Both the position numbers and the translations under genes were made by a program. Below, in pieces: positions 10,971 through 48,838 of a DNA stretch of 64,000 nucleotides (positions within the stretch are counted from its first letter, which is position 1; every line of letters begins with the position of its first letter). The stretch covers positions 1,743,544 to 1,807,543 of the forward strand of contig NW_003314269.1 in NCBI RefSeq assembly GCF_000143415.4, read 5' to 3'. Under the pieces are notes generated by a model. The model was given only the letters and a program-made list of their open reading frames with translations, did not search any database and was not told the origin of the DNA. The DNA is from Selaginella moellendorffii (Eukaryota; Plantae; Lycopodiophyta).

Positions 10971-11702
10971 CGTCCTCGATCACTCGCGTAGCCGCATCAA
11001 CGAATTCCCGCTTACCTTGGCAGCTCCTGGAGCCGGTCGCGGCCGCGATCGCTCGATAGCCCTCGCCTCGACTGCCCGGCCTTTGTGATCTCTCCTCCAC
11101 CAGCGCCGCTCTAGGGCAATCCCGGCCGTCCATTAGAGCTCTTTACAGTTTTAGGGCATGGGCATATTCTCTGGGCAGATGCGAATCTCGCAGTACTAAA
11201 CCACTAGTAGCTGCGCAATGGAGGAGTGGCTATGGCGCCAGGCGCGATGGAGAGAGGAGTGATGATCATGAGTGGAAGCGTCGTCCTAGAACGATGATCG
11301 ATCAGGCTGGCTGTGTATGTAAGAGCAAATCGCACGGCTTTCGTGGATGAATGCCTCGTTCCTCTTCTAGCTGCTTAGAAATTTCTTCCTGCTTTGCCTG
11401 CGCTGCCAGTGTTCTAGGGTTTATGGCTATGGCGCTGCTGTGGCGCCGCCGCGGCGCCCCGGATTCGCAGCTGTCGGTGATGAGATGTGCTGGATTGGAT
11501 GCTGCTGCCTGCTTGGATTTGCGATTTCATGTTAATGACGGTATTGTGATGCAAGCGGGATTTCCAGGGAAGAAGAAGAGAGCGAGAGGAGAGTGGGGAT
11601 GATATGCCAAGCCAGTGAGTGAGGTGTGTTTGAGAGGAAGAGGGAGAGTCGTAAGGTCATCTCTTCGGCGACGAGAAATCTTCCATGGCCGGTGGCATTA
11701 GC

Positions 11703-19878: not shown

Positions 19879-21648
19879 TGTGAGACACAAAATCCCTAGG
19901 CCCCAAAGTGGAGCCGGAAAGGGTGCCACGTGGTAGTGGCCGAAGCGAAAGCCAAACGAACATAACACGTTTGGACTAAAAACTCCGACTTGGAAGGTCG
20001 AGAGCGGGAGTGGAACTCCCAATAAAGTGCTCGAGGAGCAAGCACGAGGCAACCAATAAGAAAGGCTCCAAAAAGGGACCCAAAAAGGACCAACACATGA
20101 CACATGGAAGTGTCCGAGATGGAGTCCGAGGCAGACCCAAGTTAGAGTCCGAGATGGACCCGAAGTGGAGTCCGATATAGAGTCCGAAGTGGAGTCCGAG
20201 ATGGAGTCCGATATGGAGTCCGAAGTGGAGTCCGAGATGGAGTCCGATCTGGAGTCCGAGATGGAGTCCGATATGGAGTCCGAGATGGAGTCCAAGATGG
20301 AGTCCGATATGGAGTCCGAGATGGAGTCCGAGATGAACCTGAAGTGGAGTCCGATATGGAGTCCGAGATGGACCCGAAGTGGAGTCCGATATGGAGTCCG
20401 ATATTGAGTCCGAGATGGAGTTCGAGATGGAGTCCGAGATGGACCCGAAGTGGAGTCCGATATAGAGTCCGATATGGAGTCCGAGATGGACCGAGATGAA
20501 GTCCAAGATGGACCCGAGATGGAGTCCGAGATGGACCCGAGATGGAGTCCGAGATGGAGTCCGAGTTGGAACCGAGACCGGGACCGAGACCGAGACTGAG
20601 TCCGAGTCCGAGTTCGAGTTCGAGTCCGAGTCCGAATACTAATACAGGCAGTTGGGTGAAAGCCCAAAGCGATCGTCCCCCAGGGGGGGGGGGCTGTAGG
20701 GGGTTCCAAAAATATAGTAGGGAGAGTGTGGGGGTTGGAGCCCAGTGGAGCCAGTTTGGCCAGTTTGGCCCAGGAAGGCCAAACCCAATGTTGGGTGATG
20801 AGCTGACCACTGGGAAGTCCAAGACTAGAGTGAACATGGACCGACAAGCAGGGTAGCTTGGTGAAGTGTTCAAGAGCCGGCTCTAGTTCCCCCGGGAGAT
20901 CGACTGGCTGATGCTCCTAGTCCAAGTGTGGGTGGCACTACCTACTTGGATACCAGGCGTGGCTCAACGGAACCTCGCTCTAAGCCCATGGCTAGAGCAC
21001 CCAAGGGCGGAAGGCGGGGAGAGTACCCAGGTGGCTCACGTAAGGCCACGGTGTTCCGAAATGTTGTCCCAAAGGCCCAGACTGTGGAAAGGAAGAGGAG
21101 CAGTCCTCTGGGGTAGTGACCAAGGACACAGTCGTGTGGTGAGGAAGTCCCAGAGGACCGTGGGACTTAGTGGTCGGGCCTATGGGCCTCGATCCAGTGG
21201 CAGTGTTGGCAAAAACGGCCAGGGGCAGAAAGGGACTTAGTAGGGACTGACAGAGGGATATTGGGGAAGGCTGTTCCCCATGTCAGTGGGCATCCTAAGG
21301 ATGTTAAGGAGTGGATCCGAGATGACCACTCATGGATGGTTTGCCTAGTCTTGGAGAGCCAAGACTGTGATACAAGTGGTATTGAACTACCAATGTGGCA
21401 GAGGTGATTGGGCATGGCCTTAGCGTAATAGGCTGCCATGTCGGTGGTACTTTTGAGTGTCGGTCATGGGATCGGACACGTGGAGCACTTGGACCAAGTG
21501 CAAATGTTGAGTGGCATGGATGCCATTCTCGAGGTTAGCAAGTCCCAAGTCCTGAAATGGACTTATGGAGGTTGTGATTGAGACTCCTCCAAGTGGTCGG
21601 AGGTGTGGTTAAGTGACTAAAGTAGAATGGAAAATTTAGTCGCTTACA
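19879..21648 (+). mobile_element. Solo LTR of family A
   Basis: Begins TGTGAGACAC and ends GTCGCTTACA, flanked by 5-bp TSD TCATG (19874-19878 / 21649-21653). Homologous end to end with the LTR at 24825-26500. No adjacent PBS or PPT. Confidence 0.93.
20110..20636 (+). repeat. Hexamer/dodecamer tandem array (GGAGTCCGAGAT, CCGAGT, CCGAGA) inside the solo LTR
   Basis: Visible directly. It produces the spurious SDSIS/MESE ORFs in the track. Confidence 0.9.
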
Positions 21649-24640: not shown

Positions 24641-26503
24641 GCTGCCCCAAAGAATATGCCAATTGAATTTTAGCTACAAGAGTTAAAGATTGGGGTGGGG
24701 GGGTTGTGGATCCTTAACTTTTCAATGTGATATCCTAAATTTAAGTTAACCACCTTAAAAAATAATTAAGTGCAAATCAGGATTTTTCTAGTGAAAATAA
24801 CTTAAATTTAAGTTAAGACACTTGTGTGAGACACAAATCCCTAAGCCCCAAAGTGGAGCTGAAAGGGTGCCACGTGATAGTGGCCGAAGCAAAAGCCAAA
24901 CGAGTGTAACACGTTTGGACGAAAAGGCTCCGACTTGAAAAGTTGAGAGTGGGAGTGGAACTCCCAATGGAGTGCTCAAGGAACGAGTATGAAGCAAGCA
25001 ATAAGCAAGGCTCCAAAAAGGAACCCAAAAACAACCAACACATGACACGTGAAAGTGTCCGAGGTGGAGTTCGAGATGGACCCGAGTTGGAGTCCAAGGT
25101 GGAGTCCGAGATGGAGTCCGAGATGGACCCGAGTTTGAGTCTGAGGTGGAGTCTGAGATAGAGTCCGAGATGGACTGAGATGGAGTTCGAGATGGACCCG
25201 AGTTGGAGTCCGAGGTGGAGTCCGACATGGAGTCCGAGATGGACCGAGATGGAATCTGAGATGGAGTCCGAGAAGGACCCAAGATGGAGTCCGAGGTTGA
25301 GACCGAGGTCAAGACCGAGACCGGGACTGAGACCGGGACCAAGACCGAGACCGAGACCGAGACCGAGACCGGGACCGGGACCGAGACCAGGACCGAGACC
25401 CAGACCGAGCCCGAGTCCGAGTTTGAGTCCGAGTCTGAGTCCGAGTCCAAGTCCGAGTCCGAGTCCGAGTCCGAGTCCGAGTCCGAGTCCGAGTTCAAGT
25501 CTGAGAGGGTGAAAGCCCAAAGCATTCGTCTCCCAGACCCTGGGGGGTTTGGTGAGCTCCAAAAGTATAGTAGGGGGAGGACTGCAGTGGAGCCAGTTTG
25601 GCCAGGAAAGGCTAGTTTGGCCCAAAGAGGCTGCACCCAGTGTTGGGTGATGAGTTGACCACTGGGAAGTCCAAAACTAGAGTGAACACGGACCGACAAT
25701 CGAGGTAGCTTGGTGAAGTGTTCAAGAGCCGGCTCTAGTTTCCCCGGGAGATCATCTGGCCAATGCTCCCAGTCCAAGTGTGGGTGGCACTACCTACTTG
25801 GATACCTGGTGTGGCTCAATGGAACCTCGCTCTAAGCCCATGGCTAGAGCACCTAAAGGTGGAAGGCAGGGAGAGTACCCACGAGGCCCGCGTAGGGCCA
25901 CGGTGTTCCGAAATGTCGTCCCAAAGTCCCAGACTGTGGAAAGGAAGAGGAATAGCCCTCTGGTGTGGTGACCAAGGACACAGTCACACAGGGAGGAAGT
26001 CCTAGAGGACAGTGGGACTTAGTGGTCGGGCCCATGGGCCTTGATCCAGTGGCAGTGTTGGCGAACACGGCCAAGGACGGAAAGGGACTTGGTGGGGACT
26101 GGAATTGAGATATTGGGGAAGGTTAATCCCCATGCCTGCGGGCATCCTAAGGATGCTAAGGAGTGGATCTGGGATGATCACTCATGGATGGATGGCCTAT
26201 TCTTTGAGTGACAGGACTGGGATGCAAGTGGTGTCAGACCACCGATGTGACCAAGGCGAATAGGCATGGCCTTAGCATAACGGGCTAATATGATGGTGGT
26301 ACCTTGGGGTGTCGGTCATGGGATCAGACACGTGGAACACTTGGACCAAGTGCAAAGGTGGAATGGCGGGGATGCCATTCTTGGGGCTAGTAAGCCCAAG
26401 TCCAAAATAGGACTTATGGAGGTTGTGAGTGAGACTCCTCCAAGTGGTCGGAGGTGTGGTTAAGTGACTAAAGTAGAATGGAAAAATTTAGTCGCTTACA
26501 ATT

Positions 26504-26515
26504 TGGTATCGGAGC
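26504..26515 (+). promoter_or_regulatory. Primer-binding site (initiator tRNA-Met type) of element A
   Basis: TGGTATCGGAGC just after the LTR end ...TTACA. One base differs from the usual TGGTATCAGAGC. Confidence 0.85.
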
Positions 26516-29500
26516 TGTTCCTTAGTCCGACTTTTATTGGTGTTGAAGTATATCACCACTAGTGTTGGCATCGGAAGGTCCTAGGAGTGGGCTTGTCCTT
26601 GAGGAGTAGCAAGTCGGGAAGACATAGCTCTCCACTACAGTTCACGTGTGAACTTGTAGGCAAGGTGGTGGATAGAAAAGGGCCAATGATGGAACGACTT
26701 TGGGATCTTGGGAACAGTGCAAGGTTTTCCTCATTGAGTTGAGGATGTGATCTAGATGAGCGTTTGACTCAGTAAACTGGCTAATGTAGTTGTGGTAAAC
26801 AACTATAGTTAGGATCACAGGGAAGATAGAGACTCCAAAACGATAAAGGAGTCACAAGATTACCCTCATGAAGTTGAGACTGGTGCTTATGAATTTGAGA
26901 CCAGAAGTAATGACCGCGGGAGGTTAAATACTGAAAAGGACACAAATCCTTGAAATGGTAGCCGAAGCTACCTCTAATAAATGCTGGAACAACCCAAAGA
27001 GTTGGGGGTGTATTTAGAAGATGAGTTGGTATTCTCATCACATGGACAAATGGTCCTAAGGGGCAAAAGGTTGCCCCTAGAGAACAAATCAAGTGTCGGA
27101 GTAACACTTGCAAAAAATGGTCCTTGTGAGTAGGACATGAATACAAGGAGTTGTATTCCAGTGAGTTAGCACCTCAAAAGTAGGACTTCATAGGTCGTCA
27201 GATTAACAAAGTCCAAAAGGTTGAATGACTCCAATAGAGTCAAGGAATAATCCTAAGGGCTTGAGGAAAGCATTTGGACTGAGGTGTGTGGTGCCTCACA
27301 AAAGATGGGGAGGATTTTGAGATCCAAGCATGAGAGTAGTATGTATCTCATTAATGGCAGAAGGTGCCATGCTAAAGTCGTAGGAAAGAGTTTCCCGGAA
27401 GAAAACAACTTTGACACAAAATTGTGCATAAACTCTATGGTGCAGTGCTAATGGATAATTAGCCTAAGAGACAACCATATTGGTCTTGGCAAAAAGACCT
27501 AAACACAAATAAGTGTCCTAAAGGTAGGCTCGTGGAGCCGATGGTGTGGAGACACCGAAGGTGCCAAGGCGTGTTGCCTTGAGGTCAAGTTAGTGGGTTC
27601 ATGAGAACCCCTTCCAAAGAAATCCCAATGGAAATGGGAATAACATAGCCTAAGCTGGAAGGCATGCAATTAGAGTGTGGTGACCCAGATAATGATGGAA
27701 GTGTGGAAGCACCAACAATGAGTTGTAGGACTTGACAACTATGAGGCATCTAAGCAAAGGGTGCAAAACAATTCATAAACTGGTAGAAGGCAACTACCTA
27801 AGACTTCTTATTGGGATAAGGAAGTTCAATATACCCTTATAAAGGATAAATTGCTTATGTTGTGACATAGTAAGTCAATGTTAAAAAGGGAATGCTCATT
27901 GTCAGAGAGGCCATCATTAGGACACCCAAACACTCTAGAACACCAGAAGGGGGTATTTGGTGTCACGAGGGCAATGGATAATGCCCAAGGGACAAAGTCC
28001 CTAGTGAATGAAGGATAGGAGGTGTTATCCAAATGTCCAAGGTTGTGGAGACAGGAGAAGTCCATCTACCCAAATTGAACAAAGCGAAAGAGGGATTTTA
28101 GCAAGGCTAGTGATGGACATATAAAGGCCCATAAGTAGCAACGGTGATCCTAGTGTGTGGAATTATAAGGTGAGCAAACCCGGATTGAGGAACCACTCCC
28201 TAGGCTGTCGGGTAGGTTCATCTCTATGAATACTTGCCAAGGCATGGTAGAAAGTGCAAAGCTATCTTCCTAATCTGGAGGAGAATAACCGAAGGAAATG
28301 TATGAGGCCAAAAGGCAAGTAGTATAGGGATAGAATTGAACCATAGGAATTGACAAGCATGACTAAGGGTGGTTATGCAAGTTGAGAGTGGAGAATCAAG
28401 TGGGTGCTCAAGCATGTTGTTACTAACGACCAGGATGCCATGAAGAGTCTAAAGCATGGGATTGTCCATGTTAGAATATATGGTAATTGGCAAACTTGCG
28501 AAAGGAGAGGCTTTAGCAAGCCAAGGAACAGAGTTCCTTGAACGTTCCCCTAGGTAGATAAGTACCTAGTCAGCCAAGTGTAAATAGTTCATAGAACGCG
28601 TGAAATCAGAGTGGCGCAGCAGAAACGTGGTCTTGAAGCTTGCTATGAGGCGAGGCTATCAAGATTGGGGAAGTAGTTCCCGAGTGTTCAAATAAAGGGT
28701 TTTGAATGAAAGTTGATGGTTAAGGATTTTCACGTTTATGCATGAACCATGTTACAGTGGCCGAAAGATTTGCTAAGTGAGATTGGCAAGTCGGGGGGAA
28801 CGAATCCCCTAGTTGAAGGTGCTAACTTCAAAAGGGGTGGCCTAGCACCAAGCTATGCTCACCATGCAATAGGAGCAAAAGACTAGTGGCTAAGTGTGGG
28901 CTATAGAGTGCATTGGAAGGAATCCAAATGGCAAAGTTAGGCATGGAACACTAGTGTGTTGGATGCTAATAGATTGTGAGAAAGGAAGTGTGCTTCCAAT
29001 GATGAATTCCCAAATACTCCAAGTTGGCCAAGGTGAAAGCTCCAAAGGAGGGAGTGGCGAAGTAGCCAAAGGATAGAGCCATGGATAGCTCTAGCACAAC
29101 TTACGATGGCTGGAACTTGGTGCCAAAAGTGGCATAAAATAGAAAGGAGGACGATGGCGCCCTCAAGTGGGGAGTTTCTTAGGATGGGAAGTGAAGTTGC
29201 ACAATATGTGTAGTGAAGGGTGTCAAAGACACCAAAGAAATTGACTTTGAGAAGTCAAAATTAAAAAGTTCTAAGGTGAATTGGTTATGTCAATAGAAGT
29301 TGGGACTACTCGAAAATGAATAATGGAATTGAGTTAGAGAAAGTGTCTCTAACGGGTTTAGCGAGAACTAAACCAATAAAAGGGAGCAAACCACCCCAAA
29401 TGGCCGAATGAGTCTCTATGTTGGAGAGATTATGCCCCTTAGAGGATGGATAAGGCATGGTGAGCCTTCGGGGTCAAGCCATAGACAAATATTGGTTGGG

Positions 29501-31309
29501 TGCCAAGGATGGAAATGGTAATACTTGCAGATGTTACTTTATAAAAGGGTTTACTGTTCAATGAGGACATCGAACTTTGTCTATGGGTGGTGGAGTTGTA
29601 AGACACAAATCCCTAAGCCCCAAAGTGGAACTGAAAGGGTGCCACGTGGTAGTGGCCGAAGCAAAAGCCAAACGAGCGTAACACGTTTGGACTAAAAGGC
29701 TCCAACTTGAAAGGTTGAGAGCGGGAGTGGAACTCCCAATGGAGTGCTCAAGGAACGAGCATGAAGCAAGCAATAAGCGAGGCTCCAAAAAGGGACCCAA
29801 AAAGGACCAACATATGACATGTGGAAGTGTCCAAGGTGGAGTCCAAGATGGACCCGAGTTGGAGTCCGAGGTGGAGTCCGAGATGGACCCGAGTTGAAGT
29901 CCGAGGTGGAGTCCGAGATGGAGTCCGAGATGGACCGAGATGGAGTCCAAGATGGACCGAGATGGAGTCCGAGATGGACCCAAGATGGAGTCTGAGATGG
30001 AGTCCGAGATGGACCGAGACAGAGTCTGAGATGGAGTCCGAGATGGACCCGAGATGGAATCTGAGATGGAGTCCGAGAAGGACCCAAGATGGAGTCCGAG
30101 GTCGAGACTGAGACTGGGACCGGGACCGAGACTGAGACCGAGACCGGGACCGAGACCGATGTAAGGAACCAACTCGCCGAGGTGTCGTAGGTTAAGGGAA
30201 CCCCGAAAGCATGACCAAAATGACAAAGAGTTCATCGGATGGGACCAAGTCAAAGATCGAGTCCAAGACCGACTCTAGGACCGAGTTCGAGATAGAGTCC
30301 GGAATCGAGTCCAAGATCGACTCGAGGACCGAGTTCGAGTCCGAGTTCGAGACCGAGTTCGAGACGGAGTCCGAGATCCGAAATCGGGTCCGAGACCGAG
30401 TCCGAAGTCGAGTCTGAGGTCGGGCCCGAGATCGGGTCCGAGATCGAGTCCGCGATCGAGTCCGAGACCGAATCTGAAGTCGGATCCGAAATCGGATCCG
30501 AGATCGAGCCAGAGACTAAGTCCAAATACTAATACGGGTCAAGGGGTGAAAGCCCAAAGCGTGCGTCCCCCAGGGGGGGGGGCTGCAGGGGGTTCCAAAA
30601 GTATAGTAGGGATAGTGAGGTCCAGGAACCAGTTTTGAAGGGACTCTCCAGTTGGGCTTCCAAACCGACTTGAGGTTGGGACTGGGACTAAGGGGCCTTG
30701 GGTGGGAGTGAGCATGGACTTGGCTGGTGCCGGAGGGGCCATCCAAGGAAATGCTCAAGAGCAGCTCCCACTCTCGAAAGGGAAACCGATTGCGGTGCTC
30801 CCGGCTCATGTGGAGTGGTGCCCCACTTGAGTACCATGCGGCTCATTGGTCCTCGCCCTTCCTAGGGGCTTGGGCCTTCCTTCGGGATGGAAGTGGGGGG
30901 CGAGAGGTACCCATACCGGGCCGTTAGGCCACGGTGTTTCGCCCCGGCGTCCCGAAGCAAGTGTTGCACTCAAGACTTGGGATTTAGAGGGTCCCATGAT
31001 CAAGTCTTGTGGTACCAAGGGATGTTAGGAACCTGGAAGCTTGGTGTGCTTGGCTGCTTGTGCTTGCGGGGAGTGTAGCCGAACCTTAAGTCCAGTCTAA
31101 CCCGGGGAGGGGGATTGGGAGTGATTTGGGAATCCGTGGAAGGATGGCTAACACTCCGTTGCTCGTGCAGTGAGTAGCTGAAACTAAGTAGGAGCTGGTA
31201 CCATAGGCGAGAACCTTGGCAAGGGAACTTAGCAAAAGCCAAGGCAGTGTTGGACGGATAGACGAGGTAAGCTGGCAAATTGGAAAGGAAAAATTTGTGG
31301 CTTACAATT

Positions 31310-31321
31310 TGGTATCGGAGC
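31310..31321 (+). promoter_or_regulatory. Primer-binding site (initiator tRNA-Met type) of element B
   Basis: TGGTATCGGAGC, identical to A's PBS. Confidence 0.88.
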
Positions 31322-34300
31322 CTTTATCTCAGTTCTAGCGAAGGATAGAGGCGGATTGCTGGGAGATGGCAAGGGCAGGGCGTAAGCGAACCCAGGCGGA
31401 GACGGAACCTCCGCCGGAGCTAGAGCCTCCGGTTGAACAAGAGGCTATGGATGAGGAATCCTTGCATGAGGAGGACTCCAGTGAGGAAACTTCCAAACAG
31501 GAGTCCGGTGGCGAGGTTCGGTCGTCCAAGGCTCGATTGGACGTGCTAGAAGGACAGTTGGCACAGACCAATGCCCTGCTGGAGACTCTCGTACGCAAGT
31601 TAAAGCGTGACAAGAAGCGGAAGAAAAAGCGAAAGACTGCGGATGCTGGCAGCGCAGAAGGTGCGGACTTTTCGGCAGGGACTGAGGCAAAACCAGACAA
31701 GGTCGAACAGACCGAAGTGGAATCAGTCCCTCAGGCAGTTCCCAAGTACAAACCAAAGCCCCCACCGGTGTTCAAGGGAGTGAACGACTATAAGGTTGTG
31801 GAGGATTGGTTTTACGATATGGAGGACTACTTCCGAGCGTTGCGGTTACCGAGCTCGGAGAAGGTCCCATGTGCAAAACCATACTTGGCAGATAATGCCA
31901 AGTCTTGGTGGAGAACAACGGAGGCCAACGAAGGACCGGTGGCCACCTGGGACATGATGAAGGCAAGGATCCGCGCGACATACGTTCCTCCGAATGCCAC
32001 TCTGCATCTGAGAGATGAGTTGAGTAGGCTGAAGCAGACTGGAACCATCCAGGAATATGTGAATGGGTTCATGGCAAAGAGGATACTTGTCACGGACATG
32101 GGGGATATGGATGCGTTCCATGCCTTTATATCAGGTTTGCAAACCTGGGCTCGCGGTGAGGTGATGCGCTAGAACCCGACCAACTACAAGGAAGCGTTGG
32201 ATGCGGCCATCAAGGTGCATTTCAACGATAACCTGCGAAAGGGGAACACGACGGGGTCGGGATCCACGTTTCACAAAGGGGCCAAACCGAGGGGAACATA
32301 TAGCAAGGGGAAATTCAAGAAGAGTTTCTCTAAGAATGAGTCCTCGGGGTTCCGGAAAGGCAAAGCCGGTGGCCAGCGAGCGAGTACGTGGGGAAGTCAA
32401 GCGAAAAAAGACAAACCCACGGATAAGAAGGTCAAGTCGTATAGCAGCGTGGGCAACAACGTATGCTACAACTGCGGCGAAGCGGGACACTTCTCGAGGG
32501 AATGTCCCTACCCGAAGAAGGCCAGAGCCAATATGGCCATCAAGTCGGGTGAAGTCCAAACTGAGGTATGTGATCCAGTCCCTAACTCAAAGTTACTCAT
32601 TACACGAACAACTTTGGTAGAGAGTCGTTCGCGACATCTACTAGCCCTCCGAGGGAAGCTCGGAGGTAGCTTTGTTAAGATCCTTATTGACACGGGTGCT
32701 TCGGATAATTTTGTAGCTGCAGACATAGTCCGGCAAGCCGGACTAACGGTGCAGCGGCTAGGCGAACCAAGGACTATAGAGTTTGTTCAGGGTAGCCAAA
32801 GCACCGATGAGATACTTCGACAAGTGAGAGTCGAAGTGGGGACATGGAAAGTGGACATGGATTTCACCGTCTTGGACATGGCGGGATTTGACGTGATCTT
32901 CGGAATGGATTGGTTTAATCGGTTCGTGGTAGCCCTGCATGGACAAGGTAGGAACCTTGTGGTATTGGCGAATGCCCAAGGAAGAAGATCTAGGGTGGAG
33001 GCCCAGGATCTAAAGGTAGGGCAAAGCAAGGCCAAAGAGTCATGCTTAAACCTGGTGTCCACGAGAGGACAACTCACTAAAGGAACTAAGGCAGCCTTTT
33101 TGTGCTTACTCTCGGTGAAGAGTGACAAAAAGACAAGAACGGAAGAAGTACCTTTAGTGATCCAGCAGGTGCTGGACCAATTCTAGGATACCATGCCAGA
33201 GGAGCTACCGGCGGGGTTGCCCCCCGCACGACCGATAGAACATAAGATTGAGCTGGTCGAGGGTGCTGAGGCGGTGGTTCGTCCACCCTATCGATTGAAC
33301 GAAAAAGAACTCAAGGAGCTCAAGAGCCAACTAGAGGAGTTGGTGGACAAAGGGTATGTTAGGTTGAGCAAGTCGCCGTATGGGGCGCCGGTGCTATTTG
33401 TGAAAAAGAAAGACGGATCTATGCGCATGTGCATAGACTACCGGTTGCTCAACAAGTATACCAAGAAGAACAAGTACCCTTTGCCAAGGATCGAGGACCT
33501 GTTCGATAGGTTGGGAAAGGCAAAATACTTCTCGAGGATTGACCTAAGGTCAGGATACTACCAGATCAGGGTAGCTGAGGAAGATGTCGAGAAGACAACC
33601 TGTCGAACGAGGTATGGGAGCTTTGAGTTTTTGGTGATGCCCTTTGGGCTGTGCAATGCGCCGGCAACGTTTTCGGCGTTGATGAACCACATCTTTGTAC
33701 CCTATTTAGATCGCTTCGTGGTCGTCTATATTGACGACATCCTGATCTATAGCGAGACGCTAGAGGAGCATGCCGAACACTTGGCGAAGGTGTTTGAGAA
33801 ACTAAGGGAACACAAACTGTATGCTAAAGAGAGCAAATGTAACTTTGCTCAACAAGAGGTAAAGTTTCTCGGGCATGTGGTGGGCCAGGACGGGCTCAAG
33901 GTGGACCCGGAGAAGGTCCAAGCGATCCAGGAATGGGAACGACCATCGAATGTACATGAGTTGAGGGCGTTCCTGGGGCTATGCAACTACTATCGAAAGT
34001 TTATCAGACACTATTCGAGAGTAGCCCTGCCCTTAACGGACCAAACAGGAAAAGGGAAGATGGTATGGACAGCGGAATGCGAGGCGGCATTCGTCCACCT
34101 CAAAGGGAAGTTGAGGAAGGCTCCGGTGTTGGCATTGCCAGACTTTGGTAAGGACTTTGAGGTAGACACGGATGCTTCGGACTTTGCGTTGGGTGCAGTT
34201 TTGAAGCAAGACAACCATCCAGTAGCATTCTTCTCGAAGAAGCTGGACAAGGCTCAACGGAAGTGGCCTGCCCACGAGAAGGAATTGTTTGCGGTGGTCA

Positions 34301-35239
34301 AGGCGCTCAAGGAGTGGCGACACTACCTTGGGAGACACTTCAAGGTTTACACGGACAATGTGGCAACGAAACACTTCTTGTCACAGCCCGACCTAAGGGG
34401 AAAACAAGGTCGGTGGGCCAATGCTTTGGCCGAGTTTGATTGCGAGATCCTGTACAAGCCTGGGAAGAGCAACATCGTGGCAGATGTGCTAAGTCGAAAA
34501 GCGAGCTTGAAGTTGGCGATATCTAGCGCGACAGCAACCTTTTGGGACGATGTGCGGACCGCATACGAGAGTGATGGTCTAGCACAAGAAGTGTTGCTGA
34601 GGAATCTGGAGGCGCGGGAAGCTCACCAGAGAGGTGAGTTGCCAACGGAAGAGAAAACGGGCTATGCGGAACGCAACGGACTCATATATTACAAGCAAAC
34701 GAGGGTGTATGTTCCAGAAGGGGAACTAAGGAAAGTAGCCTTGGAAGAGTGTCATGACGGACCTCTCGCGGGACACGGCGGAGTGCCCAAGACGATGGGC
34801 TTACTCAAAAGGAAGTATCACTGGCCAGATATGGCTAAAGACGTCCAAGACTATGTAAAGACATGTCCAACATGTCAGCAGGTCAAAGCCGTGACGAAGG
34901 CTAGTGGGGGCTTGTTGCAAAGCATCCCCATTCCAGATCGTCCGTGGAAATGTCTCACGATGGACTTCATCACGGGACTACCCCCAAGCGAGGGGTTCGA
35001 TGCGATATTCGTGGTGGTGGACCGATTTTCAAAGATGGCACATTTCATACCCACCACAACGGATGTGGATGCAGAAGGTGTGGCGAAGCTGTTCTTCGAA
35101 CAAGTGGTTCGAGTGCGGGGAAGGTCGGAAGAGATTATCTCAGATCGAGATAAGATCTTCACCAGTAGGTTTTGGAGGACACTCCTAGAACAGTATCGCA
35201 CCAAGTTGAAATTCAGCACGGCCTATCACCCACAGACAG

Positions 35240-35286
35240 GTAATGGGTATTGAGTCAAGATTGATGGCACTAACACTTCTTGACAG
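35240..35286 (+). other. Predicted spliceosomal intron 1 (47 nt) in the integrase core
   Basis: G|GTAATG...CACTAAC(35268-35274)...TTGACAG|AC. Removal restores HPQTDGQTER; unspliced reading stops at 35251-35253. Confidence 0.88.
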
Positions 35287-35704
35287 ACGGACAAACGGAA
35301 AGGGTGAATAGGCAGCTGGAGGATTATTTGCGATGCTATGTCTCGGGAGACCAGACCGACTGGGTAAGTCATTTGGGACTTGCGGAAATGTGTTATAACA
35401 ACTCACCACATTCGAGCATCGGGGTGAGTCCATGGGAAGTCATCAATGGGCGAGCTATTGAAGGTCCTGTGGAACTCGGCGTGGCCGAGTATCATGGAGA
35501 GTTACCCGCAGTGGAGGCATTCACGGCGGAAAGACTCAACATTTGGAATCTAGTGAGGGATTCCTTGGAACGGGCTCAACAAAGGCAAACTAAGTACGCG
35601 AACCAAAAGCGTCGAGATGTGGAGTTCCAAGCTGGGGAGAAGGTGTGGCTGAACACCAAGAACCTCAGGCTACCAAGTGGGATCAGCTGGAAGCTGACCC
35701 AAAG

Positions 35705-35756
35705 GTAAAAATGCATGTATTCCTGTAAATGAATTGATCTTGAGTTCCTTAAGCAG
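35705..35756 (+). other. Predicted spliceosomal intron 2 (52 nt) in the integrase C-terminal GPY/F region
   Basis: AG|GTAAAA...TTAAGCAG|G. Removal restores KLTQRFAGPYEI and puts the chromodomain in frame. Confidence 0.88.
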
Positions 35757-38700
35757 GTTCGCGGGGCCTTACGAGATTGAGGCTCGAATCGGTAAAGTGA
35801 CTTACCGTCTCCGACTTCCTCGAGAGATGGGGAAGATGCATCCCGTGTTCCACGTGAACTTACTCAAGCCGTATTTTGAGGATCCGCTTCGCAAGGACCA
35901 AGTAAGACCTTTACCTGAGGTTATCCAAGGGGAGGAGGAATACGAAGTCGAGGCCATCCTCAATGCGCGCAAGAGCAAGCGACAAGGACGCGAGGTGAGA
36001 GAGTTCCATGTGAAGTGGAAAGGATTTCCACACTGTGAAGCAACATGGGAACCGGAGGAGAACCTAGCGAACGCACGAGATCTAGTGGAGGAATTTCTGC
36101 ATGGCAGAACTCTATGTACTTATGCAAAGTTCAATTAAAAGTATCAATTTGAGAAGTTGAGCAATGGCATATGTTGGGACCCGAAGGCGCGCCGAAGGTA
36201 AGCTAATTAGCATGGGTTAACTAGGTCGACCAGGCGTAGGGAGCTACGCCCGACTCTCTGCGGGGATGTCGAAACCGTAGACGTATTCTACGGAGGTTGG
36301 GTTCGAGTCCCAACCCCCTAGTAAAGCAAGGCTGGGTTCAAGTCCCGACCCCATACTAGGGCGTGGTGAGAGGAGGAGTATAGGGACACCTATATTCCGT
36401 TGTCATGAGCTCTTGGCCGGGGAGGCTAACTTAGGCACACCGCTAAGTGGGGGGATGCCCCCGGAGACATGGTCAACAAGTCGTAGGATAAAAAAGAGAC
36501 GTTCGATGTGGGCATCGAACTTCTTCTATGGGTGGTGGAGTTGTAAGGAACCAACTCGCCGAGGTGTCGTAGGCTAAGGGAACCCCGAAAGCATGACCAA
36601 AATGACAAAGAGTTCATCGAATGGGACCAAGTCAAAGATCGAGTCCAAGACCGACTCTAGGACCGAGTTCGAGATAGAGTCCGGAATCGAGTCCAAGATC
36701 GACTCGGGGACCGAGTTCGAGTCCGAGTTCGAGACCGAGTTCGAGACGGAGTCCGAGATCCGAAATCGGGTCCGAGACCGAGTCCGAAGTCAAGTCCGAG
36801 GTCGGGCCCGAGATCGGGTCCGAGATCGAGTCCGCGATCGAGTCCGAGACCGAATCCGAAGTCGGATCCGAAATCGGATCCGAGATCGAGCCAGAGACTA
36901 AGTCCAAATACTAATACGGGTCAAGGGGTGAAAGCCCAAAGCGTGCGTCCCCCAGGGGGGGGGGGCTGCAGGGGGTTCCAAAAGTATAGTAGGGATAGTG
37001 AGGTCCAGGAACCAGTTTTGAAGGGACTCTCCAGTTGGGCTTCCAAACCGACTTGAGGTTGGGACTGGGACTAAGGGGCCTTGGGTGGGAGTGAGCATGG
37101 ACTTGGCTGGTGCCGGAGGGGCCATCCAAGGAAATGCTCAAGAGCAGCTCCCACTCTCGAAAGGGAAACCGATTGCGGTGCTCCCGGCTCATGTGGAGTG
37201 GTGCCCCACTTGAGTACCATGCGGCTCATTGGTCCTCGCCCTTCCTAGGGGCTTGGGCCTTCCTTCGGGATGGAAGTGGGGGGCGAGAGGTACCCATACC
37301 GGGCCGTTAGGCCACGGTGTTTCGCCCCGGCGTCCCGAAGCAAGTGTTGCACTCAAGACTTGGGATTTAGAGGGTCCCATGATCAAGTCTTGTGGTACCA
37401 AGGGATGTTAGGAACCTGGAAGCTTGGTGTGCTTGGCTGCTTGTGCTTGCGGGGAGTGTAGCCGAACCTTAAGTCTAGTCTAACCCGGGGAGGGGGATTG
37501 GGAGTGATTTGGGAATCCGTGGAAGGATGGCTAACACTCCGTTGCTCGTGCAGTGAGTAGCTGAAACCAAGTAGGAGCTGGTACCATAGGCGAGAACCTT
37601 GGCAAGGGAACTTAGCAAAAGCCAAGGCAGTGTTGGACGGATAGACGAGGTAAGCTGGCAAATTGGAAAGGAAAAATTTGTGGCTTACAACCGAGACCGA
37701 GGCTGAGGCCAAGACCGAGCCCGAGCCCGAGTTCGAGTCCGAGTCCGAGTCCGAGTCCGAGTCCAAGTCTGAGAGGGTGAAAGCCCAAAGCGTTCGTCTC
37801 CCAGACCCTGGGGGGTTTGGTGAGCTCCAAAAGTATAGTAGGGGGAGGACTGCAATGGAGCCAGTTTGGCCAGGAAAGGCCAGTTTGGCCCAGAGAGGCT
37901 ACACCCAATGTTGGGTGATGAGCTGACCACTGGGAAGTCCAAGACTAGAGTGAACACGGACCGACAATCGAGGTAGCTTGATGAAGTGTTCAAGAGCCGG
38001 CTCTAGTTCCCCCGGGAGATCATCTGGCCAATGCTCCCAGTCCAAGTGTGGGTGGCACTACCTACTTGGATACCTGGTGTGGCTCAATGGAACCTCGCTC
38101 TAAGCCCATGGCTAGAGCACCTAAAGGCGAAAGGTAGGGAGAGTACCCACGAGGCCCGCATAGGGCCATGGTGTTCCGAAATGTCGTCCCAAAGTCCCAG
38201 ACTGTGGAAAGGAAAAGGAGTAGCCCTCTGGTGTGGTGACCAAGGACACAGTCACACAAGGAGGAAGTCCTAGAGGACAGTGGGATTTAGTGGTCGGGCC
38301 CGTGGGCCTTGATCCAGTGGCAGTGTTGGCGAACACGGCCAAGGACGGAAAGGGACTTGGTGGGGACTGGAATTGAGATATTGGGGAAGGTTAATCCCCA
38401 TGCCTACGGGCATCCTAAGGATGCTAAGGAGTGGATCTGGGATGATCACTCGTGGATGGATGGCCTAGTCTTTGAGTGACAGGACTAGGATGTAGGTGGT
38501 GTCAGACCACCGATGTGACCAAGGCAAATAAGCATGGCCTTAGCGTAATGGGCTAATATAACGGTGGTACCTTGGGGTGTCGGTCATGGGATCGGACACG
38601 TGGAACACTTGGACCAAGTGCAAAGGTTGAATGGCGGGGATGCCATTCTTGGGGCTAGTAAGCCCAAGTCCAAAATAAGACTTATGGAGGTTGTGAGTGA

Positions 38701-39671
38701 GACTCCTCCAAGTGGTCGAAGGTATAGTTAAGTGAATAAAGTAGAATGGAAAAATTTAGTCACTTACAACTTGTCTTAACTTTAGAACTAAATACAAAGT
38801 AAAAAAGTCCTAAAAATCATACTTAACTTTAGGATTGTGCGAATCAGCTCATTCTATGATAAATCACTATAGAGTAGAAATTTATTTTATTTTTTTTGTT
38901 TCTTGCAAAAGTGATGGAGACTTATAAGAGAATCCTCTTAACATGATGAAATATTTCCCATGTCTGAGTATCTATGTTCCTCCCAAAGTAGGATTTTATC
39001 TTAGTTTTAAAAAATAATATCTTTTGAAAATGAAGGATTACATTCATTCCTTAAGTAATGGTAGTTTTTTAAGGGAGCCTTGTCTACTGAAATTTGGCTA
39101 TGTTTAATCTACTTTAAGACTGGTAACTAATATAATTATTTTAGATGTTGTAAGAGATATCTTTCTTAAGTATTATCTTTTCAATATCTCTAATAGGTTT
39201 TTTAATTTGATATAATATGTCAGATATACATAGAATATACTTGGATATTCTAGAATATTCTACAATCTAATAGTTGTTATTTATTTAAATTTATCTTGTT
39301 TTTATAATTTCTAAACTTTTCTAAGCACTTTCTAGTATATTCTATTTTATTCTAAAATATAATGGTTGATATGTAATAAGATTAATCTTGTGTTTATAAA
39401 TTATTAACATGTATATAATTATAAACTTTCAATTGATTAATTTAATTAATAAATAATAAGCACTAATATTTATGTAAAGAAAAAATTACTAACACGCAGC
39501 AATTTATTTAGATTATACTCTTTATTAAATGATTTTTGATGTAGATTGTGTATTATAAATAAGGCCAATATATTAGATAATATTTTTATATTTAGATAAT
39601 AAGTTTTTATATTATATGAAGTTAATGAAGCAAATATGCTATTAATGAATGCAATTCTTAAAAAAATTGAG

Positions 39672-41384
39672 TCAAGCCAAGTTTTGGAGCTCAAACATTG
39701 AAGCAAGTTCATCAATGCTAAAACTCTGCTCTTCAGAGCTTTTCTCCCCAAACACAAATTCTACCAGTTTCTTTTTCTTCTCCTGGATCTCCAACACATG
39801 TTCCTCGACAGTCTGTTTGACCACAAACCTGGTCACGTGGACTGGCCGAGTTTGACCAATGCGGTGCGTCCGGTCAATTGCCTGGTCTTCAGTCGTGGGG
39901 TTCCACCACATATCCATTAAAAGCACACGAGACGCGGCCACCAGGTTGAGCCCACACCCACCAGCCCTGAGAGATATCAACATCACCACCACATCTGGAT
40001 CCTCACTAAATCTTTTGATTGCCGCAACTCGTTTTCCCGCACTCATGCTCCCGTCGATCCTGGAGAACTGGATCCCGGCTCCTTCCAGCTCCGGCTCGAT
40101 CAGGTTGAGCATTGATGTCCACTGCGAGAAGATGAGGGATTTCTCTCCCCGAGGGGTCATGTCGAGCACTCTTAATGCGGCTTTCAGCTTTGCAGACTGG
40201 CCAATCTCTTGCACGCTGCGATCAAAATCCTCTTGCTTCTCCCGGGCCTCCAGCTGGAGCTTCCTGACGGCCTCTCTCATCTCCTTCAGGCCACTTCCAT
40301 CCTCCGTGATCAGATCATCTTCTTCGTCGACTCGAAAGAGATGTTCACTGTCGAGCAGAGCCGGATGGTCACACATTTGCCTCAGCCGCAACAGCATGCT
40401 CAAAATGATAAACCTGTTCATGTGTAACGTCCCTTTGCTCCTGTACTCACTGATCCTATCCTGGTACTCCTTTCGAAGGTTTTCATAGAGTTCCCTCTCC
40501 TGCTGCGAGAGCTCCACCTCCACCCGGTTGACCAGCCTGGGCGGCAGCCGGAGCACTGGCTCACCATTAATGATCGATTTCTTGCTCCGCCGCAGCACAA
40601 TGCTCTCAAGCGCCACCTTGAGTTCTGCCGAGTAGCCTGTCTTCTCATACTCCTCATACTGCTGGTCAAAAGCTCTCCAATCGCTACAGTAGGGCTTGAC
40701 TCGAAGAAAGCAAAAGAAGGCATATAGATCCTTGATGTTGTTTTGGAATGGCGTTCCTGAAAGACCCCATCTGTAGGTTGCAGAGAGACGCATGCAAGAC
40801 ATTGAGACATCAGTGTAGGCATTCCGGATGGATTGTGCCTCGTCCAACACCACCCTATGCCACTTCACATTGGCTAGTGGACCGGAGCGCTCCCTCCAAG
40901 CTACACGACCGGTGTCAAATACTTCGACGTTCAAGCACCGCTCCTTGGCCACAACTCCGTACGTGGTGATCACCACGTCGTACGATGCCAGCTTCTCTAG
41001 CGTCACCTTGCGTTTGCCTTGGTCGTGGTAGACTAGTGTGGAGAGTGGTGCACTGGCCGCCACCTTGGTTCTGATCTCGTGCTCCCACTGCCGGATCACA
41101 CTTACCGGGCAAACGATGAGCGTACCACCCTTAACGTTGGTACCCGTACCCCTTGACCTTGGTCCCGCCTTGACGATGAGAGCTATGGCTGAGAGGGTTT
41201 TGCCCAAGCCCTGATCGTCTGCAAGGATACCACCTTTTGTGGTGCTAAACTCGCGCTCTAGCATCCAGGCTACCGCTTGCTTCTGGTGATTCATCAGATT
41301 TATTGTCATTAACTGTGAGGAGGACTCCCTTATTCTTTGCTTCTTCTCCCCCACATCCACAAACTCTCCCTTCCTTTTCTTCAT
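39672..41384 (-). CDS. SNF2 ATPase of the RAD5/16 (Ris1/FRG, CHR27/28-like) group; intronless, no RING finger
   Basis: GGILADDQGLGKT, VVLDEAQ, LSGTP, LLRLRQMCDHP, LIFSQWTSML, GGCGLNL, WWNPTTEDQAIDRTHRIGQ. TATA-like TATATAAATA about 35-40 nt upstream of the ATG. Confidence 0.88.
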   Translation of the reverse strand: MKKRKGEFVDVGEKKQRIRESSSQLMTINLMNHQKQAVAWMLEREFSTTKGGILADDQGLGKTLSAIALIVKAGPRSRGTGTNVKGGTLIVCPVSVIRQWEHEIRTKVAASAPLSTLVYHDQGKRKVTLEKLASYDVVITTYGVVAKERCLNVEVFDTGRVAWRERSGPLANVKWHRVVLDEAQSIRNAYTDVSMSCMRLSATYRWGLSGTPFQNNIKDLYAFFCFLRVKPYCSDWRAFDQQYEEYEKTGYSAELKVALESIVLRRSKKSIINGEPVLRLPPRLVNRVEVELSQQERELYENLRKEYQDRISEYRSKGTLHMNRFIILSMLLRLRQMCDHPALLDSEHLFRVDEEDDLITEDGSGLKEMREAVRKLQLEAREKQEDFDRSVQEIGQSAKLKAALRVLDMTPRGEKSLIFSQWTSMLNLIEPELEGAGIQFSRIDGSMSAGKRVAAIKRFSEDPDVVVMLISLRAGGCGLNLVAASRVLLMDMWWNPTTEDQAIDRTHRIGQTRPVHVTRFVVKQTVEEHVLEIQEKKKKLVEFVFGEKSSEEQSFSIDELASMFELQNLA

Positions 41385-42399
41385 TGGCAGCTTCTTTTAC
41401 ATAAGAGAAGTTAGGGTATTTATATAGAAGGGTAACTTTAGAATATACTAACCAGTGAAATTGGCTTTTGTGCCTTTCTTTTTCATGTTGCCAAGAAAAC
41501 ATCGTCCTCTCCAAGTTCCTAGAATAAACAATGATAATAATAGAATTCTTGAACCTTACACAATCAACCTTTCACACCTTCCACTTGTGCCTCGGTCACG
41601 TGAATGAACATAATCCTCGCTTTACCACTTGATGGGGGGAGGGATAGACGAAGGCGAAAAACTCTCGAGAGCATGTCAAGCCTCAAGCTAACCTAATGAG
41701 GTTCCTTCATGACCCGGTCAAGCTCTTCATGCGCCTGCCGGGCCAGCGTATCATCTCGCCCTTCACAGTGCCTTTGGAGATTGGCTCCGGCCAGAAGAAG
41801 ATTCTATCAAGGAGAAGAGCAAATAGTGGAGAACTTTCTAAACGCCATCGTCAAGCTGCACAAGATTTGTTGCAGAGAATCCCCCCAGGGACTTTGTGGG
41901 CGTGATGCTGTGTAGGCAGAAGATAGAGAGTTTTTTCTGCGGGTATTATACATGGCATGTGGCACAACACCAGATTCATGGGGTGCTGCCCCAGATCAAG
42001 CACATCTCTCGTTTGCAGAGCGTCAGCAGGAGAGTGCCAATCTGCTGCCGAAGCGTGAACACAGTAAGTAAAGGAATGGAGGTTTTTTTCACATTGGAAT
42101 CAGTGCCCTGGAGCAGCCGGTGAGTTGTGACTATGCCACTTTCGTCTTCTTCCTGGGCGGTGAAAAGGAGCAACTCAAGTCGAGGGTCTCAATCCCTGTC
42201 ACGAATTGCAGGAGCAAAGGGTATGCTATTGTCAAGGACGATGAGGTGTGGGAGAGGGTCAAGGATTACCTTTCAAGCTTAGAAGGGAGTGATGCCAAGG
42301 TTGTGGTTTATGGAGGCCACTGAACAACACCTGGGGACTTGTACACAGTCTGGTTTGATGTCTTTATTAGCCCTGTTGCTGTGTGATACGCTGATTCAG

Positions 42400-46237: not shown

Positions 46238-47968
46238 TTAAGAGGAACCTTGCAAAGCGTTGGAAATCAAGTTATAGGACGCCGCATTCTCGGGGCTAAA
46301 CTGGAGCAAGTGGTCCGCCACCCGCGCCCCACGCTCCACGTCACCGCATGATGCACTGAGCAGCGCAATCCTGGCCGCTGGATCCGGCACGTAAGGCATG
46401 GCGGCGACGAGCTCCTCAGCGTGGCGGAGCTGCTTGGCGCGGCCCAGGAGATCAATCATGCAGTAGTAGTGATCGGCGATCGCCCTCCGCCCGAAATCCG
46501 CCGCGATGGAGTGGAAGCAGTGCCGCCCATCCGCGAGGCCGCCGCCGTGGCCGCAGCTCGCGAGCACTGCCGTGAACGTGATCTCGTTAGGGCTCGCGCC
46601 CGCGAGCAGCATCTCGCGGAAGAGGGCAATGGCGGCGCCCCATTCGCCGCTCTGCCCGTGCGCGGAGATGATCGCGTTCCACGCTGCCACCGTCGGGCAA
46701 GGGATCTGGTTGAATATCTCGTGCGCGCGTGCCGCCTGGCCGCGCTGCTGGCCGGTGGCGGCGAGCATTGCCGTCCAGGAGATTGGATCCCGCGCCGGCA
46801 TTGAATCGAAGAGCCTCTTCACCGCCCCAAGATCCCTGGCTTGGGCAAATGCAACAAGAATCGCGTTCCAGGAGACGATGCTGTGTTCCGGCATGGAATC
46901 AAACGCGCGCTTCGCCTCCTCGATCTGCCCAGCCTGCCCGTGCATCGCGATGATCGCATTCCACGACGAGGTGACGAGATTGTGCGAGCAGCGGAGGATT
47001 CCTAATTCCTGGAAGAGATCCCGCGCCTCGGCAATCCGGCCGCACTGTGCGTATGAGCCGATCATCGCATTCCAGGCGATCGCGTCCTGGTGGGGCAGCG
47101 AATCAAACATCGCCCTCGCCTCCTCCAGATGCCCGCCCTGCCCAAGAACAGCCACCATAGCCGTCCACGCCACTACGTCCCACTCGGGCATCTTGTGGAA
47201 GAGGGCCCTCGATTCCGGGATATCCCCGGCGGCACCGTACGCTCGTACCATAGACGTCCACGCGACCACGTTGCGCTGGGGCATCGAACCGAAGACCTTT
47301 CGCGCGCCATCCACGTCGCCAGCCTCCACGTAGGCCTGGAGCATGGCGCTCCACGTCACCACGTCCTGGTCGGGCGTCTGGTCGAACACGCAGCGCGCCT
47401 CGTCCACGTGGCCGCTGGACGCGTACGCCTGGAGCAGCGCATTCCACGTCACTACCGTTCTCTCGGGCATCCTGTCGAAGATTCGTCGACACTCTTCCAG
47501 ATCCCCGGTGTCGCCATATGCGGCAATCATGACATTCCTTACCACCACATCCGGGTCGGGCATCTGGTCAAACAGGATCTTAGCATTTTCCAGTTGGCCA
47601 GATTCCACGTATGCTTTGATCACGGCCGTCCATGAGATGGCGTTCCTCTCGCCCATGAGATCGAACGCTGCTCTGGCCTCGAGCAAATGCCCGTTCTGAG
47701 CATATGCCCCGACGAGAAAATTCCACGAGTAGAGATTCCTGTTGTGGATGGAATCGAAAACGCGACGTGCCTCGGCTGGTGCACGGCACTTCCCGTACAT
47801 CTCTACCAGAAGATTGGAGAGGTAGCGCTCTTGGCTGTGGGGGCTGTGGAGGATCTGTGCTTCTAGCTGCACTGCACGCACAAGATTCCTTGAATTGCCG
47901 CAAAGCTTGATCAATCTCACGAATTCTGAGATGTCTGGGGCATCCAGTTGCTTGAATCCATGATGCAT
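46238..47968 (-). CDS. PLS-class pentatricopeptide repeat protein with partial E extension, intronless
   Basis: Repeated F..MP.R.VV.W.AM..AY...G units; DHYYCMIDLLGRAKQL..AEEL...MPYVPD; ends ASYNLISN with no DYW domain. First ATG at 47968. Confidence 0.92.
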   Translation of the reverse strand: MHHGFKQLDAPDISEFVRLIKLCGNSRNLVRAVQLEAQILHSPHSQERYLSNLLVEMYGKCRAPAEARRVFDSIHNRNLYSWNFLVGAYAQNGHLLEARAAFDLMGERNAISWTAVIKAYVESGQLENAKILFDQMPDPDVVVRNVMIAAYGDTGDLEECRRIFDRMPERTVVTWNALLQAYASSGHVDEARCVFDQTPDQDVVTWSAMLQAYVEAGDVDGARKVFGSMPQRNVVAWTSMVRAYGAAGDIPESRALFHKMPEWDVVAWTAMVAVLGQGGHLEEARAMFDSLPHQDAIAWNAMIGSYAQCGRIAEARDLFQELGILRCSHNLVTSSWNAIIAMHGQAGQIEEAKRAFDSMPEHSIVSWNAILVAFAQARDLGAVKRLFDSMPARDPISWTAMLAATGQQRGQAARAHEIFNQIPCPTVAAWNAIISAHGQSGEWGAAIALFREMLLAGASPNEITFTAVLASCGHGGGLADGRHCFHSIAADFGRRAIADHYYCMIDLLGRAKQLRHAEELVAAMPYVPDPAARIALLSASCGDVERGARVADHLLQFSPENAASYNLISNALQGSS

Positions 47969-48838
47969 TTGCCACCAACATTTTCTACACACAAACGATC
48001 GAGTTTTCTAGATATTCATTTGTACTTGTCGCGATCGCTGAAAAGGTGGTCTAAGGCGGTTAAACTTGCTGGACTCGATCCACCAGGCCTAAGCGTTTCA
48101 ATCGACAAAGCGCTTCATTGACGAGATTGGAAGAAGCCAGGCTGGGATGGAAGAGTTCTTAAGAAGACATGAATGTTTTGCGTGTTGCGATCATCCTCGT
48201 TATATTTTTTTGCATCTCATAATCTAGACGAATGTAGAGCCACGTACGCTGCCCTCAATCTAAACAAGCTCTTTGATAGCCGTTGATCTTGATTTCTCGA
48301 TCTTCCTGCAAACAATTTTATGCCTGGAACATAGTATCTTTTGGATACCTCGAGGAGAAAACCTCGCTCGCATATCGATCAAAGATCTTCTCTCTCCCGG
48401 GGATTCGAATTCCAGGGGTTTACAGGCACCATTTCAATCAATTCCATGACGCCATCAAACTCGTGAGAATTTAATAGATTTCCAATCACGCTAGACGATG
48501 CACAAGTGAAACAAATCATCAAAATCGCGGTGCAAAAAAAGAGCGCGTGATCCCTTCACTGGCAAGAGCTGGAGCTGTAGCGATGCTCGGTTACCCGCCT
48601 GACGCGATGTGTCCCCGCATTATCAGCCACGTCACAATCCCCCTCCGAGGATAACACCGTGCTGACTCCCACCTTGAAGCGGGCGCGCTCATACAATACC
48701 CCGTCTACCGAGCTCTTATATATCGAAGAAACTCTTTGAGCTTGGGCATGTGGGATAGGGCATTTTAGGGCCAGATAAACAATGTAGGTTTGCCTTTAAA
48801 AGTCTTCTTTAATTTTTTAACCGTTTAGGGTTTTTGCA

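Follow-up and report, generated by a model that had tools for sequence, protein, structure and literature searches.

A spliced leader intron removes the primer-binding site in an intron-bearing retrotransposon family of Selaginella moellendorffii

Four GT-AG introns are spliced in RNA of a long terminal repeat (LTR) retrotransposon family of the lycophyte Selaginella moellendorffii, and the DNA-like sequencing runs carry only the intron-holding form. The copy in question, element B, is an LTR retrotransposon with TG...CA LTR ends (7,530 bp, forward strand) at 30160-37689 of the window, the whole 64,000-nucleotide stretch that was analysed (NW_003314269.1, positions 1,743,544 to 1,807,543). One intron lies in the leader and removes the primer-binding site (PBS), one lies in the protease, and two lie in integrase. 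An earlier note, made from the letters alone, had proposed the leader intron and had suggested that spliced messengers, unable to be copied, explain why the integrase introns are not lost. The leader intron is very probably real. That it acts as a gate, sorting RNA into spliced messengers that are not copied and unspliced genomes that are, and so keeping the integrase introns, is put at about an even chance, coupled splicing and exclusion from particles being suppositions of that proposal.

The evidence comes from eight of the 23 listed runs, compared over 30540-36540. Three of these (X1, X3 and X4) are RNA-like, being RNA by guess; three (X16-X18, about 12% of each read) are raw RNA; and two (X10 and X11) are DNA-like, with deep cover of all 30 bins. 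In X1, four contigs 95-99% alike to B carry four GT..AG joints, and none of the four retains an intron. These spliced contigs derive from another family member, 2-4% different from this copy of B. The leader joint skips exactly 66 nucleotides, 31267-31332 (depth 7.86, 110 letters on the shorter side). This is the 31266-to-31333 junction that the earlier note had predicted, and it excises the LTR terminus together with the whole PBS. The protease joint has a depth of 7.73, and both integrase joints lie on one contig at 11.2. Two joints are repeated elsewhere: the 157-nucleotide protease joint in X3, from another study (depth 4.67, short side 28), and the 47-nucleotide integrase joint in a single raw RNA read from X16.

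None of the four joints occurs among the DNA-like contigs of X11 (1,716) and X10 (379), 2,095 in total, compared with 11 other joints listed there at depths of 2.0-3.2. One X10 contig (35092-35783, depth 46.9) spans both integrase introns unspliced. Another (31255-31486, depth 52.7) contains the full leader intron, with just 12 letters upstream of the donor. On the assumed run types, and with the joint in one run, the leader segment is thus removed in RNA and present in DNA.

The leader intron has the makings of a U2-type (major-spliceosome) intron: GT..AG borders; a branch-like site; a pyrimidine tract; and a GC content below that of its flanks (0.39 vs 0.57). The donor GAG/GTAAGC has its GT at 31267, the LTR ends at 31306, and the CAG acceptor ends at 31332. 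These borders enclose the final 40 nucleotides of the LTR, a branch-like CTTAC 28 nucleotides from the intron end (A at 31304), the whole PBS, and a tract with 8 pyrimidines in 11 positions. U5 is a putative label for the location of the donor. The positions named in the earlier note for donor, PBS (31310-31321), first acceptor, second acceptor (a TAG ending at 31338) and gag ATG (31366) all proved right. Use of the second acceptor was rejected: the corresponding junction to 31339 is unseen among the joints of the examined runs, and the sole spliced contig (one of one) uses the first.

Chance expectation was gauged with 2,000 dinucleotide shuffles. AG/GTRAG appears in the last 100 nucleotides of the LTR in 2.75% of them (28.6% for the looser GTRAG), and a pyrimidine run followed by YAG appears in the 44 nucleotides from PBS to ATG in 1.25%. 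As the filters were picked after the sites had been seen, these percentages give modest support only. In most family contigs positions 31326-31327 are pyrimidines (258.9 and 252.8 of 258.9 depth, X11), which makes the tract ahead of the acceptor unbroken. Among the 40 listed of 260 variant rows none falls in the donor or the acceptor AG, a sample that does not establish donor conservation.

Removal of the PBS and the LTR end is the sole visible effect of the leader splice, since no ATG changes and the best PBS-like match in the flanking exons is 5 bases. Two other roles were rejected on these grounds: a start codon made or removed by splicing, there being no ATG in the intron or at the joint, and a spare PBS in the exons. 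The LTR end is sequence needed by integrase. The PBS is one that we take to match tRNA-iMet; no tRNA gene was found in the window. Priming of minus-strand copying at the PBS is established (PMC12786077). Because the spliced X1 contig extends upstream to 31155, transcription starts upstream of the donor; a start downstream of 31267, which the earlier note had held to be fatal to its proposal, is not what this contig indicates.

The integrase introns interrupt a single enzyme. Reading through intron 1 meets a stop after four codons, at 35251, and only with this intron out is the D-D(35)-E spacing correct; unspliced RNA therefore cannot encode the complete integrase triad. Intron 2 lies between the core and the SH3-like domain and chromodomain. 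Relatives show no break at intron 1 in 80 of 81 proteins with the motif and in 35 of 36 of a second set (from 48 matches of 1,400-1,700 amino acids among 120 listed), both sets favouring long open reading frames (ORFs), and their sequences align over both integrase breaks gap-free. These uninterrupted relatives, with the sister family SM2-Galahad and its single ORF of 1,577 amino acids (PMC3350952), indicate that the integrase introns were gained and then kept in a family of hundreds of copies. Decay frameshifts were rejected as the nature of the breaks, which are spliced in RNA and present in DNA-like contigs at depth 46.9.

The protease intron has a different consequence. Its splice joins 400 Gag codons to one further codon and a stop, giving Gag only, of 401 codons. 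The spliced X1 contig continues 765 nucleotides beyond the acceptor, into reverse transcriptase (RT). Both this intron and the predicted pairing of the donor with the LTR end had been overlooked by the earlier reader. The features are collected in Table 1.

Table 1. Positions in the window of elements A and B and of the splicing and replication features of B
Feature	Position	Strand	Remarks
Leader intron	31267..31332	+	66 nucleotides, GT..AG; joint 31266 to 31333 in X1; no ATG
Second candidate acceptor TAG	31336..31338	+	not among joints of examined runs
Predicted hairpin	31267..31305	+	donor GUAAGC pairs with GCUUAC, the LTR end and branch-like site
PBS of B, tRNA-Met type	31310..31321	+	wholly within leader intron; tRNA-Met PBS also in PMC3350952
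TATA-like motif of B	30602..30609	+	closes promoter-like block common to A (alignment)
5' LTR of B (SM1-Galahad-like)	30160..31306	+	TG...CA, 1,147 nucleotides
ORF1 of B on unspliced RNA	31366..35253	+	1,295 codons: Gag, zinc knuckle, protease, RT, RNase H, integrase to HPQT
Protease intron	32566..32722	+	157 nucleotides, phase 0, holds DTG catalytic motif; joints in X1 and X3
Integrase intron 1	35240..35286	+	47 nucleotides; splits HPQT-DGQTER, between second D and E of triad
Middle integrase exon	35287..35704	+	carries catalytic E; open
Integrase intron 2	35705..35756	+	52 nucleotides; immediate stop on read-through; same X1 contig as intron 1
Last exon of B	35757..36138	+	SH3-like domain and chromodomain; open up to stop
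Polypurine tract of B	36530..36540	+	region 85% alike to that of element A
3' LTR of B	36542..37689	+	1,148 nucleotides; holds second copy of donor at 37650
Element A	24825..38768	+	non-coding LTR element; B inserted in its 3' LTR; target-site duplication ACTTG; LTR end 26500; PBS 26504-26515

The layout poses a puzzle: integrase needs spliced RNA, yet spliced RNA, if copied, gives intron-less progeny that breed true. Under the proposed gate, RNA meeting the spliceosome would lose the leader intron together with the downstream introns. Gag would be made from RNA lacking the protease intron, and Pol with integrase from RNA that retains the protease intron and has both integrase introns removed. 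These messengers would be without the PBS and the putative U5 end, and probably also without an overlapping pairing or packaging signal. Only RNA escaping all splicing would be primed and copied. The hairpin between donor and branch site may tune the fraction that escapes, and integrase would work in trans, serving the non-coding element A as well. A more sweeping form of the proposal is held more tentatively, at somewhat less than even: the family would be an exon-intron gene in which all protein-making RNA is stripped of PBS and LTR end, genomic RNA has no working integrase, and the hairpin sets the split.

Several points weigh against the gate. Loss of the PBS alone would be insufficient, because co-packaged spliced RNA could donate an intron-less integrase by template switching; spliced RNA would then also have to stay out of particles. 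In Ty1 and Ty3 the pairing of RNAs is bridged by tRNA, so removal of the leader segment may do both jobs. The dimer-linkage element of foamy virus, which overlaps the PBS (PMC5035957), points the same way.

The runs raise further objections. The leader joint was seen in just one of six RNA or RNA-like runs, three of which are without leader cover (X16-X18 have no depth at 31143-31343 and are hence uninformative there). In X3 both the leader (30632-31437, depth 13.5) and integrase intron 1 (35101-35709) are unspliced, and an X4 piece that begins inside the leader intron (31293-31457, depth 2.9) has the retained form only. These retained forms may be pre-mRNA, genomic RNA or DNA, since X3 or X4 may contain DNA. 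X3 also has the protease intron spliced with no leader joint, which suggests that a downstream intron may be spliced independently of the leader. The X1 joints lie on three separate contigs, and no single molecule ties the leader joint to the integrase joints. Finally, no record identifies X10 and X11 as DNA, and because contigs lose rare forms these runs reveal the prevailing state and do not prove that spliced copies are missing. In both runs that cover them, leader and integrase intron 1 share one state (spliced in X1, retained in X3). The idea that leader splicing keeps the integrase introns is thus partly borne out, the introns being real and the integrase introns retained in DNA-like runs; its coupling is not, no contig spanning both splices and X3 being mixed.

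The alternative that survives best, though we consider it unlikely, is that the RNA pools are sorted by other means. These could be two transcription starts with differing 3' ends, as in BARE1, or Gag binding and export of unspliced RNA only; the leader intron would then be an ordinary 5' untranslated-region intron that may aid expression, and loss of the PBS a side effect. In BARE1 the TATA box and the R region decide whether RNA is translated or packaged (PMC3735527), and the X3 protease splice without a leader joint fits such an arrangement. Two starts are possible in B, where the spliced X1 contig runs from 31155 and RNA-like contigs begin near 30630. However, contig ends do not prove starts, and the LTR of B has one TATA-like motif only. 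The leader intron sites also bracket the PBS tightly (43 nucleotides before it, 11 after) and take out no ATG.

A start near 30630 is likely, on the weak hint that RNA-like contigs from two studies begin at 30629 and 30632 and that the DNA-like runs extend further. Such a start gives a leader with 8 upstream ATGs in this copy, the last at 31144; one, at 30751, is missing from most family copies. The spliced X1 contig begins right after the last of them. Separately, 30772-31131 is covered at depth 6-14, on a single strand, in all three raw RNA runs, with identical foreign flanks on both sides. The right-hand flank also occurs in X1, and the segment reads as a truncated LTR piece transcribed from another locus.

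[quoted passage not shown] The LTR end GCUUAC can pair with GUAAGC, its reverse complement, and the hairpin is predicted for both elements, A and B, although their letters differ. In foamy virus an R-region donor controls polyadenylation through structure (PMC3694450). Folding of the 146-nucleotide leader gives z -2.65, with 0 of 200 shuffles equally good; however, the intron alone is not significant (z -1.49, 13 of 200). Comparison of five LTR ends from A and B gives the hairpin 11 pairs, two of them with both sides changed, a covariation that comes from two families only.

Element A bears directly on this alternative. As the earlier note had claimed, A has no GTAAG donor: at the place aligned to the donor of B it reads TTAAGT, lacking the G of the GT. 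It nevertheless keeps the same hairpin in other letters and an acceptor-like TTCCTTAG 10 nucleotides beyond its PBS, with the AG at 26525, features that the claim had not taken in. Donor and acceptor therefore have a second possible reason to exist, which also counts against the gate. Against the by-product view, the spliced leader is the only form assembled in X1, at the same depth as the Gag exon (7.86), which is not leak-like, and neither a hairpin nor a U1 site explains the kept integrase introns. On folding predictions, the hairpin may act as a switch by which part of the RNA escapes splicing, or it may be a structure kept for priming, with the donor as its by-product.

It is very improbable that the X1 joints come from one odd locus, such as a processed intron-less genomic copy, or from misassembly, with ordinary copies leaving the leader unspliced. 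The leader joint does rest on one contig of one run, but all four joints are GT..AG and lie where splicing restores a frame or creates a stop. X3, from a second study, repeats the protease joint, and a raw RNA read of X16, from a third, repeats that of intron 1; DNA-like runs have none, and a processed copy would itself prove past splicing.

Judged by its described features, B matches SM1-Galahad, a published chromovirus family of S. moellendorffii. It shares the host, a length of about 7.5 kb, LTRs near 1,146 bp with TG...CA ends, a G tract, and a 1,295-codon main ORF without a chromodomain, which stands in a short downstream ORF; the assignment is by these features. The clade placement is taken from the description of that family (PMC3350952). 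B also has features of the Galadriel clade (PMC6317226): the order Gag, protease, RT, RNase H, integrase, chromodomain; a tRNA-Met PBS; and a target-site duplication of 4-5 bp. Its own duplication is ACCGA (5 bp, at 30155-30159 and 37690-37694), and its full domain order runs Gag, zinc knuckle, protease, RT, RNase H, integrase, SH3, chromodomain. The two LTRs differ at 9 places (8 transitions and 1 indel), and in-frame stops at 32170 and 33184 break ORF1 in this copy. Protein searches returned no close family member (best about 55-61% identity), and a viral-contig scan with the integrase region returned no relative.

Element A, whose internal region has longest open stretches of 64 amino acids on the forward and 130 on the reverse strand, is likely a non-autonomous partner mobilised by the proteins of B. 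Four features of B recur in A and in a solo LTR of its family (19879-21648): a promoter-like block, the PBS, the hairpin at the LTR end, and the region that precedes the 3' LTR (85% over 54 nucleotides). Degenerate arrays of a 12-bp unit lie near the start of the A and B LTRs (20100-20640, 25050-25520, 29830-30160, 30230-30520 and 36610-36900), and the site in A where B is inserted is such an array. A search of metagenome contigs for the 20-base LTR-end/PBS pattern turned up 10 loci; neither blastn nor tblastn linked any of them to A or B. Seven of these unrelated loci (L001-L004 and L008-L010) have, about 66 bases upstream of the match, a short conserved stretch that opens with GTAAC and closes with TTACA, directly followed by a tRNA-Met PBS; it may be a very short LTR.

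The surrounding window is gene-dense plant DNA. Host genes with long open frames, all on the reverse strand, lie at 1513-4395, 9075-10979, 39672-41396, 46238-48007 and 53024-54406; in order they encode Nup98/96, a DnaJ-Myb (zuotin-like) protein, an SNF2 helicase, a pentatricopeptide repeat protein and GH3. The DnaJ-Myb protein clusters with a named S. moellendorffii protein at 90% or more.

That an intron disappears within a single round of copying is the classic proof of retrotransposition and underlies reporter assays; plant LTR elements are described as generally intron-free (PMC12786077). Hundreds of recent copies that keep two non-coding introns across the integrase triad run contrary to this expectation, and a PBS-removing intron offers one concrete, testable reason for their keeping. 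The question of how LTR elements separate messengers from genomes thereby becomes testable with long reads alone. If the proposal holds, such a gate would allow an LTR retrotransposon to acquire ordinary spliceosomal introns in its enzymes and to retain them. The layout may then be found again in other chromoviruses, where ORFs that look 'broken' would be unrecognised exons.

In the description of SM1-Galahad (Novikov et al. 2012; PMC3350952), this Galadriel-clade chromovirus of 7.5 kb has LTRs of 1,076/1,146 bp with G tracts, a tRNA-Met PBS, a main ORF of 3,885 bp (1,295 amino acids) without a chromodomain, and, further downstream, two short ORFs, the second of which carries the chromodomain. 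Its copies number in the hundreds and are about 95% alike, and none was reported intact. The words 'intron' and 'splic' occur 0 times in the main text. That account takes the split for additional ORFs, whereas the breaks prove here to be spliced introns, with two more introns upstream. The published reading of 'no intact copy' and 'extra ORFs' is thus corrected, and ORF-based screens miss intron-bearing elements of this kind. In the literature searched, mostly not subscription papers, no report was found of introns in SM1-Galahad or of a PBS-removing intron in any LTR retrotransposon, and the four-intron structure of the family appears to be unreported.

The nearest parallel to the leader donor is foamy virus. 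Like B, it has a donor in the 5' LTR, upstream of the PBS and within a structure, which in B is a predicted one. HTLV-1 has a donor similar to that of the foamy virus LTR. In foamy virus the major splice donor lies in the R region of the LTR and Pol is made from a spliced mRNA (PMC5035957); it follows from the order of donor and PBS that its spliced RNAs are without the PBS. The foamy intron, however, continues across gag as far as a pol or env acceptor, and unspliced RNA is the message for gag. In B the acceptor lies 11 nucleotides past the PBS and before gag, so that only replication signals are removed, and small introns lie in integrase; the sole leader joint seen ends before the gag ATG, with no gag-skipping splice.

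BARE1 of barley (Ty1/copia) keeps separate pools for translation and replication, as proposed for B, and has a partner that does not make Gag and rides along, as element A may do. Its translated, partly spliced RNA cannot be copied, its unspliced RNA is packaged, and no DNA of the spliced form is reported (PMC3735527). For B, the lack of spliced forms in the DNA-like runs fits such a division indirectly. In contrast to B, what disables the BARE1 messenger is a start further downstream, which leaves out R, and no splice takes away the PBS; Pol needs no splicing. Where BARE1 has two TATA boxes, B has a single TATA-like motif and contig starts at 30629, 30632 and 31155, which are weak hints.

The protease intron of B has its counterpart in the shGAG messages of EVD and BARE1, in which a protease intron, a frameshift and a stop right past the joint yield Gag only (PMC5580714, PMC3735527). 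Splicing of this kind also occurs in other Ty1/copia elements (PMC12786077), and a study of shGAG found no such conserved splicing in Arabidopsis Ty3/gypsy elements (PMC5580714, PMC12786077). B has the same design, an intron over the protease and a stop after the joint, but in a Ty3/gypsy element, which extends Gag-only splicing to a plant member of that group. The tie of splicing to early termination known from EVD is not seen, as the X1 contig runs well past the acceptor. Retention of the shGAG intron is no puzzle, because that intron is coding and must be kept; the integrase introns of B are noncoding.

Penelope-like elements keep introns. Among LTR elements, the Ty3/gypsy Ogre has a non-coding intron between its protease and RT ORFs that is spliced for the enzymes and kept in the genome (PMC6317226). 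None of foamy virus, BARE1 and Ogre combines introns in integrase with a mini-intron ahead of gag that takes away the primer site alone. Ogre has one intron, between ORFs, and no PBS-removing leader intron was found reported for it; B, in contrast, combines two introns within one enzyme with a candidate gate.

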